This document shows positions 4,030-62,450 of a stretch of DNA of 64,000 nucleotides, piece by piece. The translations under genes and the position numbers were made by a program. The stretch comes from a virus (lineage: Duplodnaviria > Heunggongvirae > Uroviricota > Caudoviricetes). Under the pieces are notes generated by a model. It did no database searches and had not been told where the DNA came from. It saw only the letters and a list, made by a program, of their open reading frames with translations. The DNA lies in IMG/VR virus record IMGVR_UViG_3300032030_000021, positions 29,122 through 93,121 of that record; one strand, 5' to 3'. The first letter of the stretch is position 1. Each line of letters begins with the position of its first letter.

Positions 4030-5373
4030 ATGGCATTAATAGAACCCGTATCCGAGCACAGGCTGGCGGTAGAAGATCTACCGGCACAAGATATAATAGA
4101 CGCCATTGTTGTCAATAATGTATATATGCTATACAAAACAGCGCCGGCATCTAAGATGTATTGCTATATTAAGGTAACAGACAAAACCCCCATAACTCTT
4201 CCCGGAGAGCAAACTCCATACGACTGCAATATAACCGGGCCAGCCGTGTATATAGAAACAACCAATGCAGGAGAAGTTAAAACCGGAGAAATAGGTATCC
4301 GGACCATATCCAACCTAATTTCCAATAAGACACATATTGCCTCTGATAATTGGCTGATATATACATCTAACATTACGGAGTATAATAGCATGGTAGATGA
4401 AGTCGTCAGCTGCATAATCTACACCCCTCCGGATCTAAATCATTTAAGTTTTACATCTAAACAAAATGGAAGCACCGTCCGGATAAATTCCCTAACCAAT
4501 ACGGGGGCACCACCCGATTTTGAATATTCATATGATGCCATAACCTGGACATCTTGGCCATACACTACAACGGGACCAAGTAGCAACATATATACACATA
4601 CTTTTTCTACCATTACATTAAATTATAATGAAAGAATATATGTTAGAAGTCATGCTACTACATTAAACATAGGGGCTTCGGCAAATACGTATTCAAGATT
4701 TTTTATAACCGGAAAAATTGCAGCAGCCGGCAACATTCAGTCATTGATTAATTATTCCAATACCGTACCGAGTTTTTGCTATTATAATCTATTCAATGGA
4801 TGTGAGGGTCTCATCGAGGCACCAGTACTTCCAGTAACCACATTAGCTGATTATTGTTACACATATATGTTTTATGGATGTTCCAACCTTACTACAACAC
4901 CGGCACTTCCAGCAACCACACTGGCTAATTTTTGTTATCGACATATGTTCCGAGGATGTACTTCTCTCACCGCAGCACCTGAGCTTCCAGCTACAACACT
5001 ACGTAATTATTGTTATCAATATATGTTCTACGGGTGCACAAGTCTTACTACAGTACCGAGGCTTCCGGCAACCGCATTAACCAACCATTGCTATCAATAT
5101 ATGTTTTATGGGTGTTCCCATATTACGGAAGGGGTCGATTTACAACACGTAATAAGTACAGCATTCGAGTGTTGCAACTATATGTATTATAATTGTTCTC
5201 AATTAAGCTCGGCGATAACGCCACGAATATCATCGTGGAATACTCAACAATTCGTCAATTGGCTTGGTGGAGTCGCACCAACCGGCATTGTATACAAACC
5301 TAATGATCTTATAATACCAACAGATAGTGCGAATGGTGTTCCTACAGGTTGGACGGTTGTAAATTATGAGTGA
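4030..5373 (+). CDS. tail fibre / receptor-binding protein paralog (single-module version of the upstream gene)
   Basis: 447 aa. Same N-terminal domain, middle domain, ~6 LRR units and C-terminal ISSWNT..NWLGGV..PTGWTVVN module as ORF 330..4016. Confidence 0.6.
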   Translation: MALIEPVSEHRLAVEDLPAQDIIDAIVVNNVYMLYKTAPASKMYCYIKVTDKTPITLPGEQTPYDCNITGPAVYIETTNAGEVKTGEIGIRTISNLISNKTHIASDNWLIYTSNITEYNSMVDEVVSCIIYTPPDLNHLSFTSKQNGSTVRINSLTNTGAPPDFEYSYDAITWTSWPYTTTGPSSNIYTHTFSTITLNYNERIYVRSHATTLNIGASANTYSRFFITGKIAAAGNIQSLINYSNTVPSFCYYNLFNGCEGLIEAPVLPVTTLADYCYTYMFYGCSNLTTTPALPATTLANFCYRHMFRGCTSLTAAPELPATTLRNYCYQYMFYGCTSLTTVPRLPATALTNHCYQYMFYGCSHITEGVDLQHVISTAFECCNYMYYNCSQLSSAITPRISSWNTQQFVNWLGGVAPTGIVYKPNDLIIPTDSANGVPTGWTVVNYE

Positions 5374-5490
5374 TAAGTAGGGGATTATGGACAGTATGCT
5401 CAAAATATATGATATGATCAAAAAAGTAAAAATATATAAGCTAGATTATCCTAATTAAATAATTATTATTAAAGAAAAAAAAATCAAATT

Positions 5491-5928
5491 ATGACTATAG
5501 AAGAATATTTTGGAACACTACAGCAGAGCTTTGTAGAGATCTGGAAGAATCATCTGCAGACCGACAAATACTCCGATCATAAAGCCCTGAATGAATATTA
5601 TGACGATATTGTGGATGCCGTTGACAAGCTCATCGAGGACTGGATGGGCATTCATGGCAAAGTGAAAGACCTCACTAATACTATATCCACGGAATATGAT
5701 GAACCTAAGGAATATCTGAAGGCTCTCAAGAAGTTTGCCAAAGAAGGCCGTCAAGAGCTCATTCCCGAAGAAGATACGGAGCTCTGGTCCGATGTAGACG
5801 ATATTCTGGGCCTGATTGATTCTACTCTGTATAAACTGGAAGAATTGGATGAATCCGTTAATACATCAAGCCTTTCTAAATATCTGAAAGAATCTTTGAA
5901 TAAATCATGTGGTATTAAAAATTCTTAA
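5491..5928 (+). CDS. hypothetical acidic protein
   Basis: 145-aa ORF immediately after an AT-rich intergenic region. No motif recognised. Confidence 0.4.
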   Translation: MTIEEYFGTLQQSFVEIWKNHLQTDKYSDHKALNEYYDDIVDAVDKLIEDWMGIHGKVKDLTNTISTEYDEPKEYLKALKKFAKEGRQELIPEEDTELWSDVDDILGLIDSTLYKLEELDESVNTSSLSKYLKESLNKSCGIKNS

Positions 5929-5932
5929 TTAG

Positions 5933-6385
5933 ATGAAATCTATAACAGAATCTATAATAGGGAGAAAAAACTCGTATAAAGGAAAAGACCTTAAACAACT
6001 AATTCTTAGTGAAATAGATATGAAGGACTTTCCGTATATTCGAGAAACGTCTAAGAACTATAAAAACAATCTTCTAGACGATAAATTCTTATATGCACTG
6101 GATAATATCCAAGGATGCGATAATGATTTCAAGATTGCTGCAGTTTATGATATGATGGGATATATAGAGGCTCAGTATGATATTAATGCCGGCGATGATG
6201 GTGTTGCGGATCAAGGTGCATATAATATGATAGAGATGATATCCGATCCCAATCGGAATCAAAATGACTTTTACGCCTTCATACATACTCCTAGCCGTGG
6301 TGGAAATCCCTCCTGGTCCGGACTATCTCAGCAATATGCGGAAATAGCCGAACTTTTCTTAGATCCGGATTTTGAATTAATATAA
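5933..6385 (+). CDS. N-terminal MK..ESIIGRKG-tagged family protein (putative capsid-targeted internal protein)
   Basis: Starts MKSITESIIGRKNSY. Lies directly upstream of the prohead protease gene. Confidence 0.6.
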   Translation: MKSITESIIGRKNSYKGKDLKQLILSEIDMKDFPYIRETSKNYKNNLLDDKFLYALDNIQGCDNDFKIAAVYDMMGYIEAQYDINAGDDGVADQGAYNMIEMISDPNRNQNDFYAFIHTPSRGGNPSWSGLSQQYAEIAELFLDPDFELI

Positions 6386-6390
6386 CTCAT

Positions 6391-6852
6391 ATGAAAACCA
6401 TAACCGAATCCATATTAGACCGCATTAACGGCAATCGTTTCGGAGGAAACAAGACACTTCGTGCCTCTCAACAGGAAGCGGATCTTTTCCTAGTGCAAAC
6501 CGACTTCAAAAACAGCTTTAAAGACTGGCAGCTTTCCAAGTGTACATGTGTAAGCAAGTTATCCGAAATCAAGTATCGGGAATGCTGGAAAGAATCTCTA
6601 ATAGTGCCCAATGCCGAACTTCCGTTAAGCCAAGAAGAAGTAGAGAAAGTGCTTAAAGAAGACTTTAAAGGAACAGTCTTGGTAGAAAAAGTCTATCCGG
6701 AAGATATATATCTGAAACTGCCGTACATAAAAATGATTCCCCTAAAGTCCGGAGAGTCAATTCCTAATGCCCAGGCTATGTGGTGGTTCGGGGATTGGTT
6801 CACCAAGACCGAAGTTATGAAAGCTATAAAACAATATATAAATAGTTTATAA
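6391..6852 (+). CDS. tagged-family protein, degenerate motif variant
   Basis: Starts MKTITESILDRINGN and retains I-T-E at residues 4-6. Confidence 0.5.
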   Translation: MKTITESILDRINGNRFGGNKTLRASQQEADLFLVQTDFKNSFKDWQLSKCTCVSKLSEIKYRECWKESLIVPNAELPLSQEEVEKVLKEDFKGTVLVEKVYPEDIYLKLPYIKMIPLKSGESIPNAQAMWWFGDWFTKTEVMKAIKQYINSL

Positions 6853-6874
6853 CTAATAACTTAAAAACTTATGC

Positions 6875-6900
6875 AAGCTCTCTCTTGGGAGCTTTTTTAT
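6875..6900 (+). terminator. rho-independent terminator
   Basis: AGCTCTCtcttGGGAGCT hairpin plus T-run. Confidence 0.6.
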
Positions 6901-6954
6901 TTCTTATAAGTTCTGATTTGAATTTTTAAAATTATTATATATTATTTTTTTCAG

Positions 6955-6970
6955 ATATCTATAAATAAAT
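6955..6970 (+). promoter_or_regulatory. late-promoter-like box TATAAATAAAT upstream of protease/scaffold gene
   Basis: Contains the T4 late consensus TATAAATA. The shared ATAAATAAAT also occurs at 8416..8426 (sheath); weaker AAATAAAT boxes precede the MCP (22132..22150) and queE (~60063..60071) genes. Confidence 0.4.
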
Positions 6971-6980
6971 ATTTTAAGAC

Positions 6981-8396
6981 ATGTCAAAAGTGCTGATATA
7001 TGAAAAGCTGAGCAATGTCACGGGTTTCAAGAAAGTAAGATCCGATGACGGCTTTATCAGATTATCGGGTGTCTTTGCCCAGAGTGGTGTTAAGAATCGT
7101 AATAATCGCACATACACCACGGAAAACTATTCTAAAATGATCGAAGGATTGAAAAAGAGAATCGTCGAAGAAGGTTGTCCTGGCGAATTAGAACACCCAA
7201 CAACTATGAACATTGATTACAACAACGTATCTCACATGGTAGAGTCCGTGGAGATTGATGAGAATGGTACGGTTACCGGCACTATCAAGCTTTTGGATAC
7301 CCCTAAGGGAAAGATTGCTCAAGCTCTAGTAGAAGGCGGATTGCCGCTATTTATTTCATCTCGCGCCACCGGCAATGTGGATAAAAACGGTATTGTAACC
7401 CTGGAGGAATTAAAAACTTATGATCTAGTAGGTACTCCGGGATTTGCTCAAGCCAGACTCCATTGTAATGAGGGTATGGTTGCCGAAAGCATCGATGATG
7501 ATATGTTCATCGTATATGAAAATGAAAATGACAATCAAAATAAACAAGAAAATACAATGGAAATCGAAGCCTTACATGAGGAATTACAAAACACCAGAGC
7601 GCTTCTTGAAGATATGACCAGCAAATATAAAGAATTGTTGGAATCTGTTAGAGAGTTGCGTGAAAAATCGTTTAATAACGATGTTGATGAACTTAGAAAC
7701 CTTGGCAATCAGAACAAGGGTCTGACCGAATCTCGGGTTCGTCAGATGATCGAGGAATCCGTAAATGGTGCGGTTACCGGTCTTATTGAAAAACTATCCG
7801 ATGGTATCGAGAAATGGATCGTGGAAGAGTACAGTCCCGAAATCGAGAAATGGATCGTGGAAGAGTACAGCCCCGAGATCGAGAAATGGATCGTGGAAGA
7901 GTATAGTCCCGAAATCGAGAAATGGATCGTGGAAGAATATTCACCGGAAGTTGAGAAATGGATCGTGGAAGAATATTCACCGGAAGTTGAAAACTGGCTT
8001 AATGAAGAATTCGCTCCCGAGACTCTTGGCGGCATGATTAAAGAAAGCAAACAAAGCAAGCTGGAAAATATTGATTCTATATTGGAGATGTTAGATGCCG
8101 ATAAAACCAAAAAGCCGGTTTTCGAAAGTTCTACTCCCAATGAACCGTATTTTATTGCCGCTATGCCGGAACATATCCGTCCGCTCTGGGAAAGCGCTTC
8201 CGATGAAATGAAATCTTATATTACGGAAAAAGCCCATATGTATACTTTGAATACCGATGAGAAAATCAAATACTTCTGGGAGAACAAAGTAGATTTCAAA
8301 AAAGAACTCCAGCCATCAAAGAATATCAATGAAGGATTGGATACCATTACGGACAATTTCGAGAAGAATCTGAGAATGGCTCTTCGTAAACGCTAA
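6981..8396 (+). CDS. prohead core protease (T4 gp21-like) fused to a scaffold-like coiled-coil/repeat domain
   Basis: The N-terminal ~170 aa aligns by eye with T4 gp21 ([52 protein letters not shown]). The C-terminal half is coiled-coil with five [12 protein letters not shown] repeats, each carrying I-x-E sites. An ATAAATAAAT box sits upstream. Confidence 0.7.
7806..7990 (+). repeat. 5 tandem copies of a 36-bp unit encoding ([13 protein letters not shown])
   Basis: Direct tandem repeats are visible in the DNA, with synonymous and near-synonymous variation between units. Confidence 0.85.
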
Positions 8397-20401: not shown

Positions 20402-20758
20402 ATGAAGCATATCAGCGAATCTATAATAGGAAGAAAAGGAGGTACTTATAATTCATCTAAAATACCCGGAGATTGGTATCCGGGACAAGATCTGGAATAT
20501 GGGGATATTATAGTATCGAATTGGAAGAATATGTATTATATATGCCTTCCGGTTAAACAATGTATCGGATGGTGGGGTAGATATGACGGGCCAAGAGCTC
20601 AGACGGCCCTGATAAGATATAGTCCTTCTGGAGCTCGTTATACTAGTAACCTCGCAAGTGATTATCAATTTGTAAGATATATAAGAGAATATAAAAATAT
20701 AAAGACACCAGAAGATCTTAAACGCATTTTTGATAAATATAACATACCACACGAATGA
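20402..20758 (+). CDS. tagged-family protein (same subfamily)
   Basis: Starts MKHISESIIGRKGGT. C-terminus KRIFDKYNIPHE. Confidence 0.65.
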   Translation: MKHISESIIGRKGGTYNSSKIPGDWYPGQDLEYGDIIVSNWKNMYYICLPVKQCIGWWGRYDGPRAQTALIRYSPSGARYTSNLASDYQFVRYIREYKNIKTPEDLKRIFDKYNIPHE

Positions 20759-21330
20759 GAACACTTAGCGAATCTATAATAGGACGAAAGGGGAGTGTAG
20801 GATACCAATATGCTACACTAGGCCACCGAGACGAACTTATCTTGAGCGTCAATGCTATAGAACCTATTGGTAGTAAACCTACTAATTCCAATCCCCTACC
20901 TAAAGAAATTGTTTTTATATCCTGGGACGAAATCGGTATATATCCGGTAGTCACCGGATGTAGTACGGAAAACGAACTGAAACGGAAGATAATAAGCGTG
21001 TATGATGCACTGAAATCCACTAGCATGGAAGATATATGCAATCTGATGTGCATAGAATGGAAAGTTAAGTCCAATTGGTTCAAGTTTCCACTTTGGTGTG
21101 TGGTAGAATATTTCCGGGATGAGTGGGAGGATATGATGAATATAGATGTAACTGATCCACTAAGCAAATGGGCGTCTGATAGCGAATTGTATGATAAAAT
21201 TATTGCTTGGATAAAGGATACCCCATATCAATTTACTCCAGAAACCGAAATGTTTTGGTCTATAATAGATACTAATACCGGAAAGATAATAGCACGGAGC
21301 AGAACCGGCAAAATAATAATTGATAAATGA
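20755..21330 (+). CDS. tagged-family protein
   Basis: Starts MRTLSESIIGRKGSV. Confidence 0.6.
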   Translation: MRTLSESIIGRKGSVGYQYATLGHRDELILSVNAIEPIGSKPTNSNPLPKEIVFISWDEIGIYPVVTGCSTENELKRKIISVYDALKSTSMEDICNLMCIEWKVKSNWFKFPLWCVVEYFRDEWEDMMNIDVTDPLSKWASDSELYDKIIAWIKDTPYQFTPETEMFWSIIDTNTGKIIARSRTGKIIIDK

Positions 21331-21635
21331 GAACACTCAGCGAATCTATAATAGGACGGAAAGGAACTCGACCACAAACCAATATTATCAAGGATTGTCG
21401 CGATATGATTTCTAGAATAGACCATTCTCCATGGAAAGAAGCTATGGTGATGGCAACGAATTATTATGATGTCTTAATACAAAATAGATACCAATATCCC
21501 GAGGAAGTCCGGCAAATTATAGATGATTCTATAAACGAATGGTCCGGTAAGGTTTTATCTAAGATATCTAGCACCGACATTATGATACAGGCTATCAGGA
21601 GCATTTCCAATCTAGCTAAAAAACAAAGATCATGA
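21327..21635 (+). CDS. tagged-family protein
   Basis: Starts MRTLSESIIGRKGTR. Confidence 0.6.
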   Translation: MRTLSESIIGRKGTRPQTNIIKDCRDMISRIDHSPWKEAMVMATNYYDVLIQNRYQYPEEVRQIIDDSINEWSGKVLSKISSTDIMIQAIRSISNLAKKQRS

Positions 21636-22042
21636 AATCTATAACCGAATCTATAATAGGAAGAAGAGGAGTTTCCGGAAAACTACACAAATTCGACGAT
21701 TTAAAATACGGGGATTTTGTGGTTATTGATATGCCTGCCGAACAAAAAATGTTCGATTGCCTGTATGTACCGGAATATATTGCTATGAAAGTAATTTCTT
21801 ATCCTGGACCTACGGATGATTTTGGTCGATTTATATGTGTTGATCACAACGGTAAGGATATATCTTCTTTCCGGGCCGATAAGTTTGTAGATGACTTTCC
21901 GGATTGCCCCGAAGATGATGAATTTTTTTATAGTAAAATAGTAAATAAAATCGGCCATACGGAAGAATATGTTTCTTTAAAGGACAGAAAAGACGTGATA
22001 AATCTTTTTAAGAAATATAATTTAATAGGATTCCATCGCTAA
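21632..22042 (+). CDS. tagged-family protein (same subfamily)
   Basis: Starts MKSITESIIGRRGVS. C-terminus INLFKKYNL. Confidence 0.6.
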   Translation: MKSITESIIGRRGVSGKLHKFDDLKYGDFVVIDMPAEQKMFDCLYVPEYIAMKVISYPGPTDDFGRFICVDHNGKDISSFRADKFVDDFPDCPEDDEFFYSKIVNKIGHTEEYVSLKDRKDVINLFKKYNLIGFHR

Positions 22043-22077
22043 AAACCACGTCGTAACTTATTAAATATTAATAAATT

Positions 22078-22106
22078 AACCACCTCAAAAGGGTGGTTTT
22101 ATTTTT
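22078..22106 (+). terminator. rho-independent terminator after tagged-family cluster
   Basis: AACCACCtcaaaaGGGTGGTT plus T-run. Confidence 0.65.
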
Positions 22107-22158
22107 GAAGTATAATTTACACATAATCAACCAAATAAATTAAATAAATTTAGTTAAT

Positions 22159-24048
22159 ATGATTCTTAATGAAAACGAACAGAGATATCGCAATCTGATT
22201 TCCGAAGAATTGCATGTCACTGATGAAAGAAAACTGAACTGGATGGCTCAAATGGCCAATGTTCATGCCATCAAAGAAGGCTTGCAGCCCAATAATGTTA
22301 GTGCGGATCATGGCGGCATTTATGCTACTCCTCTGAACACATTAGGTATTGGCAATCCTTTCATGCCTCAGGGTCTTGGAATGAACAATCCTAATCTTGG
22401 TGATGGTATTGGCAACACCGGTGCCGATTTCCACAATCCTGCTTATGTTAATGGTTCCGGTGATGTTCCTATGTCTACTCTTTCTATGGCATTGGAAGTT
22501 GCAGCCGTTACCGTTGGTTTCGACTTGGTCGCTACCGTCGTGGCTACCGGCCCTATGGCTATGTTGACCTTCGTTGATTATCCTTATGCTGGTGGTAAAC
22601 TCGGTCACATTGGCGAGACCTGGCAAGATGGCATTGGTCCTGACAACGAGAACAAACCCATTTACATCATGTTGAAGGGTGACATGGAAACCTCTATGAA
22701 GTTCCGCGACAATGAAAACGTAGAACCCGGCCGTACTACCGTGACGATCACCGGTGACACCGGCAAGTTCATTGGTATCTATATGGGCAACTCCCGTATC
22801 GACGGTTCCGCAATCTTCCAAGTGAAGAGTGTGAAGGAAGACGATAAAGATATTTCTATCGCTCAAATGTTCCAGAAGGAAGGCGTGTTCACAACCGATG
22901 CTAAAGATAAAGATGGTAATGATATCGTATTCGGTAAAGCCGGTACGCCGGGTTCCGGTACCGAAGGTGAAGATGACTATGTTGCTCCTACCGAAGGTAC
23001 TAATGTGAGACTGATCCCGGAACTGGTGAAAGGTATCACCGATCACATCCAGTCATTCTCTAACTTCTTCGGAAACAGAGTTGAGAATGAAGATGGTTCT
23101 TATAGCGTTGTTCCTTCCGACGATCCTATGACCAGAGCTCAAAACGAAACCGGTACTGGTAACACTATTGGTGTTCGTATGTTCTCTAAGATGATCCAAA
23201 TGGGTAACTATGAAGTGACCGGTGCTGTTACTCGTCAGCAGCTTCAAGATATGCCTCTGTATGGCATCGATGTTATTGGTGGTGTATTGGAAGCTTGTCA
23301 GGCCGAGATTTCCCAGGCTCTGAACAACCGTATCATCGACCGCGTTATGAAACTTGGTGTTGAGAACTACAAAGTACAGAAAGCCGTTCAAGGCTGCGAC
23401 TTCAACCTCTACCTCGGCAACGTAGTTAAGGAAGATGGTTCCGCTAACCTGTACAAACCTCTTAACGAGTTCAAGGCATACAACAAGTTCCGCGATTTGA
23501 ATGGTAAAACCGTTCCTTCCGTGAACATTCCGAACGCTACTAAGAACTCCAGCGCCGAGAACGTTACTACTCACCAGAGACGTATTGCTTCTCGTTGTAT
23601 GGCCGCTTCTAACTTGATCTCCAGCGTTACCCGTAGAGGTCGTGCTCATTGGATCCTGACCAATGCTCAGATCCTGACCGCTCTGCAGGATTGCTCCGGT
23701 TATGTGGTAGCTCCTATGGTTAACAATCTGGTTCAAGGTGGTGAAGAGAGCTTGTACTACGCAGGTTCTATTGCCGGTATGCAGATCTATGTTGATCCTT
23801 ACATGCTGTGGGAAGACACTCGTATCTGCGTTGGCCGTAGAGCTACCGTTACTAACAACCAAGTTCAAGGTTCCGGTGTGGTCTTCATGCCGTACATCCT
23901 CGCAGACACTGTGCAAATCGTTGCAGAAGGCACCATGGCTCCTAAGATGCTGGTGAATAGTCGTTATGCAATTGTAGACGCAGGTTTCTATCCCGAGCAG
24001 AATTACTATACCTTCATGGTGGAAACTGATTCTGATTTCATTATCTAA
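22159..24048 (+). CDS. major capsid protein, T4 gp23-like
   Basis: SMALEVAAVTVGFDLVATVVATGPMAMLTFVDYPYAG resembles gp23 VMGMVRRAIPNLIAFDICGVQPMNSPTGQVFALRAVYG. C-terminal HWILTNAQILTALQDCSGY...YYAGSIAGMQIYVDPYM resembles gp23 NFIIASRNVVNVLASVDTGISY...VFAGVLGGKYRVYIDQYA. Upstream region has AAATAAAT boxes. Confidence 0.7.
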   Translation: MILNENEQRYRNLISEELHVTDERKLNWMAQMANVHAIKEGLQPNNVSADHGGIYATPLNTLGIGNPFMPQGLGMNNPNLGDGIGNTGADFHNPAYVNGSGDVPMSTLSMALEVAAVTVGFDLVATVVATGPMAMLTFVDYPYAGGKLGHIGETWQDGIGPDNENKPIYIMLKGDMETSMKFRDNENVEPGRTTVTITGDTGKFIGIYMGNSRIDGSAIFQVKSVKEDDKDISIAQMFQKEGVFTTDAKDKDGNDIVFGKAGTPGSGTEGEDDYVAPTEGTNVRLIPELVKGITDHIQSFSNFFGNRVENEDGSYSVVPSDDPMTRAQNETGTGNTIGVRMFSKMIQMGNYEVTGAVTRQQLQDMPLYGIDVIGGVLEACQAEISQALNNRIIDRVMKLGVENYKVQKAVQGCDFNLYLGNVVKEDGSANLYKPLNEFKAYNKFRDLNGKTVPSVNIPNATKNSSAENVTTHQRRIASRCMAASNLISSVTRRGRAHWILTNAQILTALQDCSGYVVAPMVNNLVQGGEESLYYAGSIAGMQIYVDPYMLWEDTRICVGRRATVTNNQVQGSGVVFMPYILADTVQIVAEGTMAPKMLVNSRYAIVDAGFYPEQNYYTFMVETDSDFII

Positions 24049-24082
24049 TTGAGATAACTACTTCTCTTAGTTGAGATTAAAG

Positions 24083-24108
24083 AAAAGGGATCTTCGGATC
24101 CCTTTTTT
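24083..24108 (+). terminator. rho-independent terminator after MCP gene
   Basis: AAAGGGATCttcgGATCCCTTT plus T-run. Confidence 0.75.
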
Positions 24109-24174
24109 ATTTTATTTTAAGTTACCTCCTTAAAAAAGAGCAAAAATCTTTTATTTTTTATAAAAAGATTTGAC

Positions 24175-25737
24175 ATGAAAGAATTAGATTTTGATTATCC
24201 GGAATTTGAAAAATTAAATCCATCTAATTGTAGAGAAGCATCTATTAGTATTCATTATCCCGAATTTAAGGAATATTTATACAACAAATATCCAGACATA
24301 CCGTTTCCTGAAAAAATATATTTATTTTATCATAACAAGGGCAATCCCGGGATTTGTAAGATGTGTGGAAATAAGACGAAATTTATTGGATTTAAGAAAG
24401 GATATAGGGAGTTTTGTTCTTACGAATGCATGAATTCTTGCGAAGAAATACAAGAACGCAAAAAAATTACATGTCGAAAAAATTATGGCACAGACAACCC
24501 TATGGGTAGTCTTGAGTTAAAAGAAAAAATAAAACGGACATGTTTAGAAAAATATGGAGTAGAGAATTGCTTTCAGTCACCGGAGCTCATGAAAAAAGCT
24601 CGAAAAACATGCAAAAGAAAATACGGGACGGAATATGCTACTCAGTCCCTGTCTGTAAAAGATAAAATATTAGAATCTAGAAGACAGAATATATTAAATA
24701 ATGATGACAGTATATTAGATATTATTCACACAGACAATCATTCCGATCTTTATATTATGAAGTGTCCGGATTCCGGATGCAATCTGTGTTCTAAAAAAAG
24801 ATATGAAATAAAATCTAATATATTATATGATCGTTGCAGATTAGGAGTAGACCCGTGCACTATAAGAACTCCAGTGGGGTCCCATATCAAAAATACGGGT
24901 CTTGAAAAATTTGTTCAAAATATATTAGATGAGTATCATATACATTATATAGCTAATGATAGAAGAATTTTGGATGGGAAAGAATTAGATTTATATATCC
25001 CGGATAGAAAAATAGCTATAGAATGCAATGGTGTATATTGGCATTCTAAATTAGATATGTTTTATCATTATAATAAGTGGCAATATTGTAAAGAAAAAGG
25101 AATTCAACTACTGTCGGTTTGGGAAGATTGGGTGACTAATAAACCGGATGTAATTAAAAATATTATATTGTCTAAGTTGAATATATATGATAATTTTATT
25201 GGTGCGCGAGAATGTGCGGTGGAGCCCGTATCCGCAAAAGAGGCGCGAGTGTTTTTAGATGAAAATCATATTCAAGGTTTTTGTAGTAGCACTATAAGAT
25301 ATGGATTATATTATAAAAATGAATTGGTGGCTTTAATGTGCTTCAAAAAAACTAATAATCCATCTTCTAAAAGGAATATTGGGTGGGAGTTATTAAGGTT
25401 TTGTTCGAAAATAGGATGGCACATAGCCGGGGGTGCTGGCAAGTTATTGAAATACTTCCGGGAAGATCATCCTGAACCAATTATATCATTTGCGTCTCAT
25501 GATATCTCTAATGGAAAATTATATGAAACACTCGGATTTCGGCATACTAGTGAAATTAAAACCTGCTATTGGTATGTCCATAACCAAACTCATAAAAGAT
25601 TTCATCGATCCTCATTTACTAAAAAAGAATTGGTAAGAAAAGGATATGATTCCAAGCTTACCGAAGAACAAATTATGATAAACTCAGATTATTTTAAAAT
25701 ATATGATTCCGGACAAACAAAATACATTTTGGAGTGA
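24175..25737 (+). CDS. free-standing homing-endonuclease-like protein (Vsr/DUF559-like nuclease domain plus zinc ribbon and tandem K-x-T-C-x-x-K-Y-G-x-E-N modules)
   Basis: Contains CKMCGNKTKF, three ~33-aa TC..KYG.EN repeats, and ELDLYIPDRKIAIECNGVYWHS (Vsr FVHGCFWHGH-like) followed by WEDW. Confidence 0.55.
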   Translation: MKELDFDYPEFEKLNPSNCREASISIHYPEFKEYLYNKYPDIPFPEKIYLFYHNKGNPGICKMCGNKTKFIGFKKGYREFCSYECMNSCEEIQERKKITCRKNYGTDNPMGSLELKEKIKRTCLEKYGVENCFQSPELMKKARKTCKRKYGTEYATQSLSVKDKILESRRQNILNNDDSILDIIHTDNHSDLYIMKCPDSGCNLCSKKRYEIKSNILYDRCRLGVDPCTIRTPVGSHIKNTGLEKFVQNILDEYHIHYIANDRRILDGKELDLYIPDRKIAIECNGVYWHSKLDMFYHYNKWQYCKEKGIQLLSVWEDWVTNKPDVIKNIILSKLNIYDNFIGARECAVEPVSAKEARVFLDENHIQGFCSSTIRYGLYYKNELVALMCFKKTNNPSSKRNIGWELLRFCSKIGWHIAGGAGKLLKYFREDHPEPIISFASHDISNGKLYETLGFRHTSEIKTCYWYVHNQTHKRFHRSSFTKKELVRKGYDSKLTEEQIMINSDYFKIYDSGQTKYILE

Positions 25738-27353
25738 TGGAGATACCAAATATTAGCAACCTTACATCCAAAGAACTTCAGGGTAAGTGGTTTGAAAAGA
25801 ATTATCTGGAGTTTTATCAGCATCTTGTAAATACATATCCAAATCTCCAAAAATTCACTGAAAAATTGTATTGGTATCTCCACGATATCAAAGAAACACC
25901 GAAATGTACTTGCGGAAAACCTCTGAAGTTCCGGAGTCTCAAGGTCGGATATTCCGAGTTCTGTTCGGCCAAATGTTCTAATTCTAATCCGGAAAAAATC
26001 AAAAAGACTAAAAATACATGTCAAGAACGATATAGATCCTCTTCTCCGGCCGGCAATAAAGACATCCAAGATAAAATGAGGAAAACATGTCTGGAAAAGT
26101 ATGGTGTAGAAAATTATCTAGAAATTTCCCATCGAACGGGAAGTCTTTCGGAAGAATCTAAGCAAAAAATGAAAGAAACCTGTATAGAAAGATACGGTGT
26201 GGAAAATGTGATGAAGCTTCCGGAATATCAAGTTATTGTCAATGGAAATAAAGATTATAAAAAACTATCGGAAAAAGCTCGAGAGGCTCGAAAAAACCGG
26301 GTTATGAATCAAAATCCGGATATAATATCTATAAAAAATGGTTTATGGACTTGCCGGTGTCCCCATCCCAATTGTACCAAATGCGATAAAAAATCATATG
26401 AAATAACGGCTCAAATGTATCATGATCGCCGAAGAGATCATACGGAGCCTTGTACTATACTTTTAGCACCTTCACCGAATAACAATAAAAATACTTCTTT
26501 AGAAATTTTTGTACGGTGTTTATTAGAAGAGCATAATATAGAATATATTGCAAATGATCGATCTATATTAGGAGGCAAAGAACTAGATATATACATTCCG
26601 GATCGGAAAATAGCCATAGAATGCAATGGTGTTTTTTCACATAGCTCTAGATATAAACCTAGAAATTATCATTATGAAAAATATAAAGCTTGTTCGGAGC
26701 GGAACATCCGTCTTATAAGTATCTGGGAGGACTGGGTTCGGAATAAGCCGGAAATTGTCCGGAGTCTGATTTTAAGCAAGCTGAACATATATGAGAACCG
26801 TATAATGGCTCGTAAATGTGAGGTGAAAGAGATAAATAGTAAAATAACAGGTAAATTTTTAGAAGAAAATCATATTCAAGGAAAAACTTCTTCAAATATA
26901 CATTTGGGCCTATATTATAAAAACGAATTGGTGGCGGTGATGCTGTTTGGAAAAAAACGAATGTGCTCCGGGAATAATAAAACAGCTGGGTGGGATTTAA
27001 GCAGATTTTGTACTAAAAGAAATATTTGTGTGATTGGGGGTGCGGGGAAGTTATTAAGTTATTTTATAAAACGGTGGTCTCCGGATATGATATATTCGTT
27101 TGCATCATGTGATATTTCTAATGGAAATCTTTATAAGTCTTTAGGGTTTGTAAATATAGGCCATTCCTCTTCATATTGGTATATAAACGAGCGCACCCTT
27201 CAAAGATATCATAGAAGTTCCTTTACTAAAAAATCCTTGATAAAACGAAACTGGGCTGATGGAACGGAAACTGAAACTGATGTAATGAATAATCATGGAT
27301 TCTTGCAAATCTATGATTCCGGTACGGAAAAGTGGATACTGAAGATTATCTAA
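25734..27353 (+). CDS. paralog of the upstream Vsr-like endonuclease
   Basis: Same architecture (ELDIYIPDRKIAIECNGVFSHS, ISIWEDWVRNKPE). ATGA overlap with the upstream paralog. Confidence 0.55.
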   Translation: MMEIPNISNLTSKELQGKWFEKNYLEFYQHLVNTYPNLQKFTEKLYWYLHDIKETPKCTCGKPLKFRSLKVGYSEFCSAKCSNSNPEKIKKTKNTCQERYRSSSPAGNKDIQDKMRKTCLEKYGVENYLEISHRTGSLSEESKQKMKETCIERYGVENVMKLPEYQVIVNGNKDYKKLSEKAREARKNRVMNQNPDIISIKNGLWTCRCPHPNCTKCDKKSYEITAQMYHDRRRDHTEPCTILLAPSPNNNKNTSLEIFVRCLLEEHNIEYIANDRSILGGKELDIYIPDRKIAIECNGVFSHSSRYKPRNYHYEKYKACSERNIRLISIWEDWVRNKPEIVRSLILSKLNIYENRIMARKCEVKEINSKITGKFLEENHIQGKTSSNIHLGLYYKNELVAVMLFGKKRMCSGNNKTAGWDLSRFCTKRNICVIGGAGKLLSYFIKRWSPDMIYSFASCDISNGNLYKSLGFVNIGHSSSYWYINERTLQRYHRSSFTKKSLIKRNWADGTETETDVMNNHGFLQIYDSGTEKWILKII

Positions 27354-27401
27354 GTCGAATTTTCAAATTATTATTGAATCAGACAAATTAATTAACACAA
27401 A

Positions 27402-28451
27402 ATGGGAAATTTAAATGATTTATACCTGCATAGCATGACCCACCCCGATGTGGCAGAAGCTTTTATCGAAGGTAAGAATGTGCCCGAAGCACTTCTCGTC
27501 AATGACGTACCTAATACTTCCGTTGCCGGAAACTACACCCCGACCCCGGGTCCCGGCCCCGAGCCTCAGCCAACCGACCCCGACTGGGTTGAAACCGGCA
27601 GAGAGCTTACTTCCACCGAGTGTGTGAAGGAAGATGGTGAGAACACCGGTATGGCTATCAAGACCTATGCCGTGACTTATGAAGATCAAAACGAACAGTC
27701 CGCAACCTATGGCGAGACTAAAGTCGAAACCGAAACCGAAACCGTAGAGGATACCGAATCCTGTCCTGTTCCCCAGCCCGAGCCCGAACCCGTAGAAGCC
27801 GACTGGGATTATATTCACGATGAACAATCCTGGAATGCCGCATATCAGGAAGACAGACCTCTCTATAAATACTATCAGAACAACCCGGAAGAGGATCTTT
27901 GGAATACTGCCGAGAACAGGGCCGTGAACTTTAATGATCGCCGGTATGCCGGTAATGTTGACGGGGAGAGTGTCGAATGTAGCGCAAAGTGGGAGAGCGA
28001 CACCGTTCAAAGTGTAGTTATTGATGGTGTTACCTATTATGGAGAGATTTTCTATGATACCAATTCTCACAGCCTCGAATTATTCAACGATGTGAATTTG
28101 ACCGAAACTACCGGCAAGACCTTCGAAATCTCCACAGTTTCTTTCTCCGAGGACTGCGTACATTGCTGGAAGGGTTCTATTAATGCCCCCGGTGCTAAAT
28201 ACCCATGGGCTGCCGTTGCGGTTCCCGAGCCATTTGCTGGTACTATCCAATTCATCTATGATGGCGGCACTCCCGTATATCCTTGGGGCGAATACAAAGA
28301 ATTCACTAAAGGCTACGGCATAGCCTCTATCCCAACCGAACTTGGAGATGAATATCTGCTAGACGAAAATGGCAATACTACATTTGACAACACTAAACTT
28401 CAGGTGTTATTAATTGCCGGTACCGGTGAACTTCCGGCCACCGAAGGTTAA
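27402..28451 (+). CDS. structural-like repeat protein with T-E-C-V-K-E-D-G-E-N-T-G-M-A...E-T-E-T-E-T-V-E-D module
   Basis: 349 aa. Contains P-x-P-E-P linkers and a ~60-aa module shared with the next gene. Confidence 0.45.
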   Translation: MGNLNDLYLHSMTHPDVAEAFIEGKNVPEALLVNDVPNTSVAGNYTPTPGPGPEPQPTDPDWVETGRELTSTECVKEDGENTGMAIKTYAVTYEDQNEQSATYGETKVETETETVEDTESCPVPQPEPEPVEADWDYIHDEQSWNAAYQEDRPLYKYYQNNPEEDLWNTAENRAVNFNDRRYAGNVDGESVECSAKWESDTVQSVVIDGVTYYGEIFYDTNSHSLELFNDVNLTETTGKTFEISTVSFSEDCVHCWKGSINAPGAKYPWAAVAVPEPFAGTIQFIYDGGTPVYPWGEYKEFTKGYGIASIPTELGDEYLLDENGNTTFDNTKLQVLLIAGTGELPATEG

Positions 28452-28484
28452 TGATCAACCAACTAAAAAAAATATAGTAATATA

Positions 28485-30611
28485 ATGATAAATACTAACC
28501 TTACCGCTATAAGATGGAAAAAGAATCTTTATTACATATCAGAAGGTGTTATTTTCGATATTCGAAATAAAGTAAGACCGGATGATAAAGATGAATGTGG
28601 TTCTTTTCTTATCGATTTTTCTAAGGCAGATGAGGTATCTAAAAATGCCGCAATAGGCGCCACCGTAAACCTCACCAATCAGACCGAACTCTTTTCCGGT
28701 CTGCCCTGGATTGAAGTACAGTTTAGCAATCCCGATTTAAACATTGCTGTGCCGTTACAATATCTTATTGAAGAAGGAGATGTCTTTGTAGATGATAATG
28801 TCGGTCAATCACACCCCAATGTTTATAATAAAGATTATCGCAATAAATTCAATCAGGAAATCTTTGAATATATCGGTGAATATGTTAATTCCAAAAATTC
28901 ATTAAATACCGCCGATTTTAATCAACTGATGTCTACATTACCAGCTTGGTTGACGTGCGATGCCGGTACGGAAATGACCGAGAGTTTTGTTCTCAATAAT
29001 TTCCTCAAAGGCAAACCCTGGGATGCTAATACCGCTATGCTCGGCACCGATGCCGTGGTTAGCCTTGTAGGAGTTACTCTTAAGACTCCGGCCGGTAATG
29101 CTAATATCTCCGATAGCTGGACGGAAGCTACTATTCGCAAGGCCGCTTTAGCATTCTATGCGGCTAAATCCATGTCCACTTTATGCATACCGGCGGATAT
29201 GAAGGAGGATATTGCTAATAGTATTATAGCAAAAGGCGAGATAGTAAATGCCGAAGATAATAAGCTAACCGCATTGCATCATATTGATTATACCGGAGAA
29301 GGTTCCGTAAGCGGATCCGAATTTGTGGATAAAGCTACAAATGCCGATACCTGGTGGGAATATGAAGGTGCCGATACCGCCCCCAAGTGGGAAGAACAAG
29401 GTAGAGAAACCATCACGGAGTGTGTTCAAGAGGACGGCGAAAATACCGGTATGGCAGTTAAAACCACTACTATAACTTATATAGATACTAACAAATACTC
29501 CGAAACCTACAATCAGACCAGAACCGAAACCGAAACCGAAACCGTAGAAGATCTGATTTCTTGTCCGCTGCCAGAACACGATACTACTCCTAACTGGGAA
29601 GAACAAGGTAGAGAAACTACTACCGAATGTGTCCAGAAAGACGGCGAAAATACCGGTATGGCAGTTAAGACTACTACTATAACCTATCTGGATACTAATA
29701 AGTACTCCGAAACCCACGACCAGACTAAAACGGAGACTGAAACCGAAACGGTAGAGGATCTGATTTCTTGTCCGCTGCCAGAGCCCGAACCTATTATTCC
29801 GGAGGATTATGTGGTTCCGGAATCCGCTGATCAGATCCCAACGGAAAACACCGAATCCGTTGATATGGCTCTTACCGGTGATGATGTAGTGAATTCATTC
29901 AATAGTGGTGCCGTTTTCAATAATCTGATAGTTGCAGATGCTAATGTTTCATCTAACATTTCTTTAAATGCTGTTGATACCGTAAAGGTTAATGGTATTG
30001 AAGTTAGTGGAACGAAAGGCGCAGGAAACGGAAAGATCATGATCAGCGCACCTAATGTAAACATCAAAGACGTAGATATTAATCCAGGTTGCACCGTATA
30101 TAATGTATTTGAAGGAGATCAGAAGCTGACCGGCAACGGACTTACCGTGTTTGTTGCGGATGGTATAACAGTTGATGATCCGGACCTCAAACACAATGTG
30201 TTCAACATCTATAATCCGGAAAATAATGCCGAGATTACAGTAAAGAATTCTTCATTCAATCTGAATATGAAGACTTCTAACGTGATGCGGTTGTCTAACC
30301 TCAAAAATGCCGAGAATGTAACGGTAATATTTGAGAACGTGGATTGGACGTATGAGAATGCCCCATATGCCGATGGAGATAAAGAATGGGCCGGATTGGT
30401 TATTTATCAACCGTTTGGAAATGATGCCGCTCATTCCGGTGACGATTCCGCTATTAATACCTGGACGTTCAAATTCAAGAACTGCCGATATAATGGTATG
30501 AATGTTGATGCTAATGAATTTGGCGAAGCTCATCAGGTCATTTATTTCTACGATATGGGTGGAAGAGGTGCATCCGAGAATCCGGTTGGGCCGACTATTC
30601 TCTTCGATTAA
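28485..30611 (+). CDS. large structural-like protein with two copies of the ETETETVED module and a C-terminal beta-helix-like region
   Basis: 708 aa. The module is repeated at aa ~300-365 and ~366-430. The C-terminal N/V/T-rich segments alternate like a parallel beta-helix (fibre/depolymerase-like). Confidence 0.45.
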   Translation: MINTNLTAIRWKKNLYYISEGVIFDIRNKVRPDDKDECGSFLIDFSKADEVSKNAAIGATVNLTNQTELFSGLPWIEVQFSNPDLNIAVPLQYLIEEGDVFVDDNVGQSHPNVYNKDYRNKFNQEIFEYIGEYVNSKNSLNTADFNQLMSTLPAWLTCDAGTEMTESFVLNNFLKGKPWDANTAMLGTDAVVSLVGVTLKTPAGNANISDSWTEATIRKAALAFYAAKSMSTLCIPADMKEDIANSIIAKGEIVNAEDNKLTALHHIDYTGEGSVSGSEFVDKATNADTWWEYEGADTAPKWEEQGRETITECVQEDGENTGMAVKTTTITYIDTNKYSETYNQTRTETETETVEDLISCPLPEHDTTPNWEEQGRETTTECVQKDGENTGMAVKTTTITYLDTNKYSETHDQTKTETETETVEDLISCPLPEPEPIIPEDYVVPESADQIPTENTESVDMALTGDDVVNSFNSGAVFNNLIVADANVSSNISLNAVDTVKVNGIEVSGTKGAGNGKIMISAPNVNIKDVDINPGCTVYNVFEGDQKLTGNGLTVFVADGITVDDPDLKHNVFNIYNPENNAEITVKNSSFNLNMKTSNVMRLSNLKNAENVTVIFENVDWTYENAPYADGDKEWAGLVIYQPFGNDAAHSGDDSAINTWTFKFKNCRYNGMNVDANEFGEAHQVIYFYDMGGRGASENPVGPTILFD

Positions 30612-62081: not shown

Positions 62082-62450
62082 CTATCTGATTTGCATGAAC
62101 ATCCAATTGCCGATGTCATCTATAATATCTTTTAAAATTTCTTTATCTCCACCAATTTCCCTTGCAATCTTATCCAAACTTTGATCATTTAATATTTCAT
62201 CCGGAGCATTTTCTAAAAATTCGTCTATCCACTCCGCTCTTTCCCGGTCGCTAATATCGTGATTTCCCGCTTCCGTTACGGCATTTTTAATTTTATTAAA
62301 AACATCTCTCATAGCATTAAAAGAAACACCATGTTTTTCCGCTAATTCTTCTATTTCAGTATTATTATCAAGAGCCTTTTCTAGTTTAGGGACGATTCTG
62401 CTATAATTAATGCCTTTTCTGCCAATTATGGATTCCGTCAGAGTTTTCAT
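62082..62450 (-). CDS. tagged-family protein, acidic helical member divergent from the sigma gene
   Basis: Starts MKTLTESIIGRKGINYS. Confidence 0.55.
   Translation of the reverse strand: MKTLTESIIGRKGINYSRIVPKLEKALDNNTEIEELAEKHGVSFNAMRDVFNKIKNAVTEAGNHDISDRERAEWIDEFLENAPDEILNDQSLDKIAREIGGDKEILKDIIDDIGNWMFMQIR

Follow-up and report, generated by a model that had tools for sequence, protein, structure and literature searches.

The 64,000-nucleotide (nt) stretch analyzed here, referred to as the window (positions 29,122 to 93,121 of IMG/VR virus record IMGVR_UViG_3300032030_000021), comes from an uncultured T4-like phage in which two tandem genes, HEF1 and HEF2, occupy the intergenic slot just 3' of the gene for a Gp23-type major capsid protein. 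Judged by sequence, both encoded proteins belong over their full length to the phage Hef family, which was already known. It is probable that the two are free-standing homing endonuclease genes (HEGs) of the Hef type, with an EDxHD nuclease, that belong to different lineages and entered the capsid-gene slot successively by the mechanism proposed below. A preliminary description of this DNA had reported tandem paralogous open reading frames (ORFs) directly after the major capsid gene. Both points held: the two intact plus-strand ORFs are 43% identical across their full length (E 3e-144), and the gene upstream has a Pfam capsid match. The same description had read the pair as free-standing Vsr-fold homing endonucleases beside a capsid gene, and this is supported by homology to the I-Bth0305I catalytic domain, by membership of the Hef family and by the variable content of the slot. 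Coordinates are collected in Table 1.

Table 1. Features of the capsid-gene slot and of related regions; positions refer to the window unless a locus is named.
Feature	Position	Strand	Details
Gp23-type major capsid protein gene	22159..24048	+	Pfam PF07068 E 1e-22; PHROG 28442 E 2e-97
Terminator-like hairpin (intrinsic type)	24081..24118	+	12-bp stem, 4-nt loop, then T-run; AGAAAAGGGATCTTCGGATCCCTTTTTT + ATTTTATTTT
HEF1 (ORF1), complete Hef-type gene	24175..25737	+	520 amino acids (aa); PHROG 3339 E 2e-113, aa 35-519
HEF1 N-terminal Cys4 zinc ribbon	24355..24429	+	C61, C64, C81, C85 invariant in 49-sequence alignment
HEF1 DUF7487 region	24430..24690	+	three 23-aa helix-loop repeats (..K.K.TC.EKYG.EN..); Pfam PF24308 E 5e-15
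HEF1 second Cys4 cluster	24763..24858	+	directly before nuclease; C197, C202, C205, C228 invariant; short beta strands in model
HEF1 EDxHD / Vsr-like core	24892..25176	+	aa ~240-334; E244, D272, N285, H290, D318
HEF1 Mom-like GNAT domain	25180..25734	+	aa 336-520; AlphaFold (AF2) pLDDT 91.6; Foldseek top PDB match 8bv8
HEF2 (ORF2), complete Hef-type gene	25737..27353	+	538 aa from ATG; PHROG 3339 E 4e-111, aa 16-536
HEF2 EDxHD core	26490..26780	+	motifs NTSLE, KELD, IECNG, SHS, WEDW at aa 253-334
Recombination breakpoint in HEF2	26700..26850		nuclease/Mom-like border; identity drop vs locus L001
HEF2 Mom-like GNAT domain	26781..27350	+	aa 350-539; Pfam PF25680 at aa 363-506
Hef remnant in locus L007	9944..10063 (L007)	-	40 aa, just past capsid-gene terminator; 72% identical to P0037 C-terminus, E 1e-13
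ORFs with shared N-terminal leader	5933..6385; 20755..21330; 21327..21635; 21632..22042; 62450..62082	+; +; +; +; -	

Assignment of the nuclease core required a family profile and a predicted structure, because single-sequence phmmer searches with HEF2 and with its C-terminal domain against PDB sequences gave chance matches alone. The family profile matched PDB 3r3p, the catalytic domain of I-Bth0305I, with E 3.3e-11 (45.8 bits), in an alignment that includes the residues carrying mutations in the crystal (D196A, H213A). The five HEF1 core residues listed in Table 1 are invariant in 45–49 family members and are present in both ORFs; the catalytic residues of HEF2 are intact as E257, D285, N298, H303, and D333 (numbering from the GTG start). 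In HEF1 they align with I-Bth0305I E170, D196, N208, H213, and D222, respectively (PMC3239194). Foldseek searches with the predicted structure ranked 3r3p first (E 2e-5, TM score 0.77–0.79, 31% identity), and Escherichia coli Vsr came third (1cw0) and seventh (1vsr) with the nuclease model. From the profile match, the top structural match and the invariant E/D/N/H/D residues, we concluded that the core, as aligned and modeled, belongs to the EDxHD family and is homologous to the catalytic domain of I-Bth0305I. The Vsr-like core noticed earlier (IAIECNGVYWHS...WEDW) is therefore borne out. Foldseek also returned Toxoplasma mitoribosomal proteins, which may reflect related Vsr-like (RAP) domains.

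Profile searches against the EDxHD and Vsr families were divided. In addition to the 3r3p match, Pfam Vsr (PF03852) scored 18.0 and 17.5 bits, below its cut-off of 27 (the weak match in HEF2 lies at aa 249–305), and TIGR00632 scored 19.6 and 20.4 bits, below its cut-off of 97.85. NCBIfam gave nothing above threshold for either Hef protein. In PADLOC the only type of match was "homing endonuclease" (HEase model, E 2e-5 for HEF2). The Hef pair thus has the fold and the catalytic residue pattern in common with E. coli Vsr, but its scores lie far under the Vsr family cut-offs and it has no mismatch-repair context. I-Bth0305I, attributed to a Bacteroides phage in the preliminary description, is encoded in the recA intron of Bacillus thuringiensis phage 0305phi8-36 (PMC3239194). 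Its catalytic domain is homologous to that of the Hef pair, with the E, D, N, H, and D active-site residues kept; however, it is intron-encoded whereas the Hef pair is free-standing. It also has N-terminal DNA-binding motifs of the NUMOD/helix-turn-helix (HTH) type and is without the zinc modules, DUF7487 repeats and Mom-like domain that are all present in the Hef pair. An Rfam scan of the whole window gave 0 matches (no intron, no tRNA), and the capsid ORF is intact, with the terminator-like hairpin behind it; the pair was accordingly classed as free-standing and not intron-borne.

Both proteins matched PHROG 3339, annotated as "homing endonuclease", nearly end to end. A tblastn search found relatives in 424 phage records, including the "Hef-like homing endonuclease" genes of T4-like phages as well as genes in RaK2/K64-1-like and PA5oct-like jumbo phages (five places in PA5oct), Lak phages (10) and an uncultured phage (13). 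More than 3,300 clusters were recovered at E <= 1e-5 from 5.8 billion proteins; among the matches listed, the nearest relative of HEF1 is P0001, with 90% aa identity and the same slot. In Salmonella phage SG1 a Hef-like gene lies between nrdA and nrdB, and its product aligns with HEF1 aa 61–517 at 31% identity (E 5e-44), an alignment that takes in the C-terminal motifs NH(I/L)QG, ELLR.C, GGA.KLL, and FHRSS. It was reported previously (PMC2988022) that hef of the T-even-type phage U5 occupies the nrdA-nrdB slot, cuts nrdB and encodes a site-specific homing enzyme. For free-standing endonucleases named Hef or "Hef-like", PMC2988022 and PMC3296691 cite Sandegren et al. 2005, and Hef-type enzymes had been assigned to the EDxHD family by 2011 (PMC3239194). 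Full-length homology to Hef was judged via the SG1 Hef-like protein and PHROG 3339.

Homology to the Hef and Hef-like proteins of T4-like, ViI-like, Campylobacter, and jumbo phages is end to end, taking in the zinc ribbon region and the repeats as well as the nuclease and the Mom-like domain, and in both cases the genes are free-standing and adjoin a conserved essential gene. Large phages carry many diverged Hef or Hef-like copies per genome, with as many as 13 in a jumbo phage; no third Hef copy was found within the 64-kb window. Differences from the T4-like Hef-like protein are also apparent: identity is ∼31%, neither the second Cys4 cluster nor the SFASxDISNG motif is present in the T4-like protein, its residues at WEDW and N285 are not the same, and the slot of T4-like Hef is nrdA-nrdB, as opposed to the 3' end of the capsid gene for the window pair.

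The content of the capsid slot was compared across 30 loci encoding capsid relatives (54–86% aa identity), and HEF1 and HEF2 were mapped onto each. As in the window, both genes are present in L001–L006 (capsid protein 79% identical in L001 and L003, where the gene is whole), and the pair is kept together in six contigs of one relative. L010 and L011 (79%) have a lone HEF2-like gene, and L012 (77%) has a reverse-strand Hef gene in slot 1 plus a HEF2-like gene. A Hef gene of a third clade is combined with a HEF1-like gene in L013, L014, and L035, a lone HEF1-like gene is found in L015, L025, L029, and L033, and L030 has a reverse-strand Hef gene. Seven loci with capsid identities of 54–59% (L008, L016, L018, L020, L022, L024, and L027) have no Hef gene. 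The two loci with the closest capsid proteins, L007 and L009 (86%), retain a minus-strand Hef remnant alone; by its alignment to P0037, the one in L007 looks like a decayed homing gene. Presence or absence, copy number, order and orientation vary among these relatives; the opposite pattern, orthologs fixed at one position in all relatives, had been named in the preliminary description as evidence against homing.

In phages with unrelated downstream genes, HEF1-clade genes (60–61% identity) stand directly after the Gp23 gene, which argues that the association is with the capsid gene and not with the wider neighborhood. A neighbor-joining (NJ) tree placed HEF1 and HEF2 in distinct clades, and slot order varies among phages; in L013 and L035 the HEF1-clade gene takes slot 2, after the third-clade Hef gene. 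In the loci compared, presence and absence of a Hef gene are confounded with phylogenetic distance, and a comparison of Hef-plus with Hef-minus capsid-gene 3' ends was for this reason set aside as a way to locate the homing site. At 10204..11115 of L007, after the Hef remnant, overlapping ORFs on both strands have low-complexity translations (LSTLSS..., ELLEQMELK...), suggesting that a repetitive coding region is being read out of frame. Other mobile-type nuclease genes were seen off the capsid slot, namely a 645-aa Hef-family gene in L010 (1039..2961) and an HNH gene in L035 (9420..9854).

Identity along the locus points to exchange between phages. HEF1 of the window and of L001 are 90% identical at the aa level, and the capsid proteins are 79% identical. 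Between the window and L001, nt identity is at least ∼0.9 over most of the stretch that begins 500 nt before the end of the capsid gene, includes HEF1 and reaches two thirds of the way into HEF2; at 24301–24600 it dips to 0.79. It remains at 0.91–0.95 until ∼26700 and then drops to 0.62–0.67 over the Mom-like domain of HEF2 and to 0.55 downstream. The C-terminal domain of HEF2 seems, from this alignment, to have been swapped as a module. Compared with L012, HEF2 is 95–100% identical in nt sequence over 25951–26400, the values for the capsid gene lie between 0.60 and 0.98, and slot 1 holds an unrelated gene. Such high identity next to a different slot-1 occupant indicates a recent transfer of HEF2. 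Sharp identity breakpoints flank or cut the Hef genes in both comparisons, and Hef genes are up to 100% identical in nt sequence between phages with differing capsid genes. HEGs are known to cluster beside capsid and other essential genes and to mark recombination boundaries (PMC10448857), and the slot and identity patterns seen here agree with that published pattern. On the slot contents and these nt comparisons, lateral transfer and turnover of the capsid-slot Hef genes are evident.

Domain anatomy was derived from alignments of 45–49 family members and two AlphaFold models, with confidence scores (pLDDT) of 88.4 and 91.6. Each Hef protein consists, in order, of a Cys4 zinc ribbon, three DUF7487 repeats, a second Cys4 cluster, the EDxHD nuclease and a Mom-like GNAT domain. 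The zinc ribbon of the preliminary description is present at the N-terminus, although there are two Cys4 clusters and not one. The ribbon of HEF1 bears a weak likeness, not significant, to YacG zinc fingers, and in HEF2 the first zinc knuckle is CxC instead of CxxC. Three repeats of ∼33 aa had been described; the K-x-T-C-x-x-K-Y-G-x-E-N motif does occur three times per ORF, in the DUF7487 region (Pfam matches at E 5e-15 for HEF1 and E 7e-14 for HEF2), but the period is 23 aa. The YG motifs of HEF1 fall at residues ∼104, 127, and 150. The repeats of HEF2 are spaced by 23 and 31 aa, and its first repeat is degenerate, with RYR replacing KYG. The repeat consensus is ..E(V/I)KEKIKQT(C/N)LE(K/R)YGVEN.FQS, and in the AF2 model each repeat forms one long helix and a loop (pLDDT ∼95). 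By a regular-expression count over 120 relatives, repeat number ranges from 1 to 14 (e.g., P0035, 772 aa). Foldseek with the zinc-ribbon and repeat region found no analogue among solved structures. The repeats are presumed to be a DNA-binding array, and with their variable number they may form a modular nucleic-acid-recognition array.

The domain description made earlier had overlooked the C-terminal Mom-like GNAT domain, which at ∼185 aa makes up a third of each Hef protein. Foldseek with the HEF1 domain model returned the crystal structure of phage Mu Mom (8bv8) first (E 2.8e-8), followed by generic GNAT acetyltransferases. An hhalign comparison with the Mom family (111 proteins) gave 86% probability (E 5e-6, 169 columns). 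HEF2 matched Pfam PF25680 (Mom) at E 3e-8, with 34 bits against a cut-off of 27.1, and HEF1 had no Pfam Mom match at E <= 1. Two relatives, P0043 and P0049, scored slightly under the cut-off when rescanned, and a Mom domain is annotated in few of the 120 listed relatives (precomputed Pfam column). The relationship became clear only with the Mom-family alignment, since the hidden Markov model of the C-terminal domain scored 3.9 bits against the single Mu Mom sequence and hhalign against Mom alone gave 2% probability. Across 45 sequences the domain has 27 invariant positions and is always fused to the nuclease.

Mu Mom is a tRNA-dependent adenine N6-carbamoylmethyl transferase that moves glycine from Gly-tRNA to adenine N6, and its activity depends on H58, Y59, R111, S124, D149, R151, Y159, W48, and W181 (PMC13219725). 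We mapped these residues onto 122 Hef-family sequences via the profile alignment, not by superposing coordinates. The equivalents of H58, R111, Y159, and H183 are invariant in both the Mom and Hef families. S124, D149, and R151, which are invariant in 111 Mom-family proteins and needed for momylation (PMC13219725), are not kept in Hef. The S124 equivalent is variable (S 74, E 15, G 10, Q 10; Gly in both HEF1 and HEF2), that of D149 is S or M, and that of R151 is an invariant Asp. Y59 corresponds to I or L, the dimer-contact residue W48 to a variable position, and W181 to an invariant Arg. At the beta4-alpha3 junction, 5 residues inserted in the Hef domain form a GGA(S/G)K loop that is absent from Mom; this sequence could be a regained canonical GNAT GxG/A-type loop and could bind acyl-CoA. 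The invariant basic segment YWY...R.HR..F.K of the Hef domain matches the region of the HTH-like insertion of Mom. The GNAT fold and the Mom-type insertion are common to both, and Mom is the best structural match; Mom, however, stands alone under Com regulation, whereas the Hef domain is fused to a nuclease. Since S124, D149, and R151 are not conserved in this profile alignment, we concluded that the Hef C-terminal domain is, by sequence, a sister group of Mom and no canonical momylase.

This domain is the basis of the main rival to homing. Iyer et al. 2021 predicted that fusions of a restriction endonuclease (REase) with Mom in jumbo phages are "momylating" enzymes of modification and restriction, and did not mention Hef (PMC7824862). 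These REase-Mom fusions are the same protein family as Hef: the five "momylating enzymes" counted in PA5oct (PMC7824862) match the five places found there by tblastn. No link between "Hef-like" and an acetyltransferase domain was found in the literature searched, in which the two readings of this one family are unconnected. Applied to the window, HEF1 and HEF2 would be defense or offense genes, each a single-chain weapon similar to a restriction-modification system, in which the Mom-like domain modifies the phage's own adenines and the nuclease cuts unmodified DNA of the host or of a superinfecting phage. The closeness of the domain to Mu Mom in structure, in profile and, for HEF2, in Pfam agrees with this, as do the four Mom residues invariant in both families, the strong conservation of the domain and its constant fusion to the nuclease. 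The loss of three residues needed for momylation does not, and genome-wide modification needs no set of diverged paralogues each tied to one conserved gene. Nor would slot-specific gain, loss, inversion and decay be expected of a modification system; PADLOC matched the "homing endonuclease" model alone, and T4-like Hef is reported to be a site-specific homing enzyme (PMC2988022). Both the residue mapping and the slot polymorphism therefore favor homing over the published prediction, and restriction-modification, weakened by the lost Mom residues and by the paralogue-rich, site-specific gain and loss, appears unlikely.

Also unlikely is the idea that the Mom-like domain, with the four residues it has in common with Mom and its GGA(S/G)K loop, is an active DNA-modifying enzyme with a chemistry unlike that of Mom, perhaps marking the target site of the endonuclease in the carrier genome, so that each protein would be a single-polypeptide, site-specific "cut-and-protect" selfish element, a homing endonuclease with self-immunity.

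A further rival holds that the pair is immobile, consisting of fixed, domesticated or decaying relics that are heading for loss or that serve the phage in regulation or exclusion near the capsid operon. Degeneration after fixation is predicted by the homing-cycle model, and a decayed remnant does exist in L007; the degenerate first repeat and CxC knuckle of HEF2 and the maintenance of the pair in six contigs of one relative would also fit. However, both ORFs are full length and lack none of the catalytic or structural residues that are invariant in the family, and HEF2 is nearly or wholly identical to the L012 copy despite the different slot-1 occupant. We regard the relic explanation as very unlikely. 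In-place duplication of a single resident gene and its later divergence, to which the adjacency, common strand, same architecture and 43% identity of the two genes would be suited, is most improbable and was rejected as the origin of the pair on clade structure and slot order: members of the separate clades occur alone in the slot elsewhere (HEF1 in L033, L015, and L029; HEF2 in L010 and L011), the HEF1-clade gene of L013 and L035 sits behind a third-clade Hef gene, and slot 1 of L012 holds a reverse-strand Hef gene. The earlier alternative of "sequential invasion or duplication" is thereby narrowed, the separate NJ clades and differing slot order favoring sequential invasion by different Hef lineages.

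Several features of the locus bear on expression. The hairpin listed in Table 1 stands between the capsid gene and the Hef pair. HEF2 was listed as an ORF of 539 aa with a GTG start (25734..27353), but the ATG at 25737 is the likelier start. The junction reads GAG TGA TGG, so that this ATG shares its A with the TGA of HEF1, and a one-base stop/start overlap is also found in the gene calls of a relative. A TGATG overlap is typical for translational coupling, and HEF1 and HEF2 are for this reason probably co-translated. Base composition, in turn, is a sign of mobility: the GC content is 0.317 for HEF1 and 0.350 for HEF2, whereas the capsid gene has 0.465 and the next gene downstream 0.487. Megablast of window positions 22000–28500 against 50,697 phage records gave 0 matches; there is consequently no named close relative among those records.

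Under the favored explanation, successive homing into the capsid slot, the nuclease would cut a Hef-less allele of a related phage during co-infection, within the 3' end of the capsid gene or close to it. That gene, the conserved neighbor of the homing genes, is the presumed target region. By recombinational repair the cut genome would then acquire the endonuclease gene together with DNA flanking it. Target recognition would fall to the zinc modules and repeats, and the Mom-like domain would probably contribute via its conserved basic HTH-like insertion. The two genes would probably be co-translated and expressed at a low level behind the capsid-gene terminator. Four points weigh against this account. 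The Hef-less loci are mostly in the more distant capsid group (54–59%), and phylogeny therefore partly confounds the presence/absence pattern. Experimental anchoring comes solely from T4-like Hef, a distant relative (31% identity). A sigma-70 promoter scan found 14 sites vs. 16.5 expected from shuffled sequence, i.e., not above chance, and no promoter is claimed for this reason. Finally, the mechanism may exceed simple homing, because no role in homing endonucleases is established for the Mom-like domain, strictly conserved though it is.

Other observations were made around the slot. Five ORFs (Table 1) open with a common leader, M(K/R)(S/T)(L/I)(T/S)ESIIGR(K/R)G, and are wholly divergent after it. 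Three of them form a tandem row shortly before the capsid gene, and locus L007 has at least four such ORFs (4252..7881). We take the leader to resemble the capsid-targeting leader and L/I-x-E protease site of T4 internal proteins; the leader-bearing ORFs may be a diversifying set of head-packaged proteins. Downstream of the Hef pair, ORFs 27402..28451 and 28485..30611 have a ∼65-aa module in common (W.E.GRE.T.TECV.EDGENTGMA.KT...ETETETVED..SCP.P; starts near 27615, 29415, and 29622), with one copy in the former and two in the latter. Neither ORF has a match in Pfam or PHROGs, and conservation of ORF 27402..28451 in relatives is limited to the first ∼58 aa.

As a homing endonuclease find the pair is routine, given that the Hef family is large and HEGs beside capsid genes are already documented. 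The capsid slot shows clearly, in a natural setting, how homing genes invade repeatedly and in competition, stack, invert and decay, with breakpoints at gene and domain borders. As a candidate array for modular recognition of DNA, the DUF7487 repeats, 23 aa long and variable in number, are also of some value. A residue-level test of the REase-Mom reading has become possible with the recent structure and mutagenesis of Mom, and its outcome speaks against canonical momylation. If the Mom-like domain did protect the element's own target site, this would reconcile the homing reading of Hef with the restriction-modification reading of REase-Mom, and it would be the most interesting outcome for the family.

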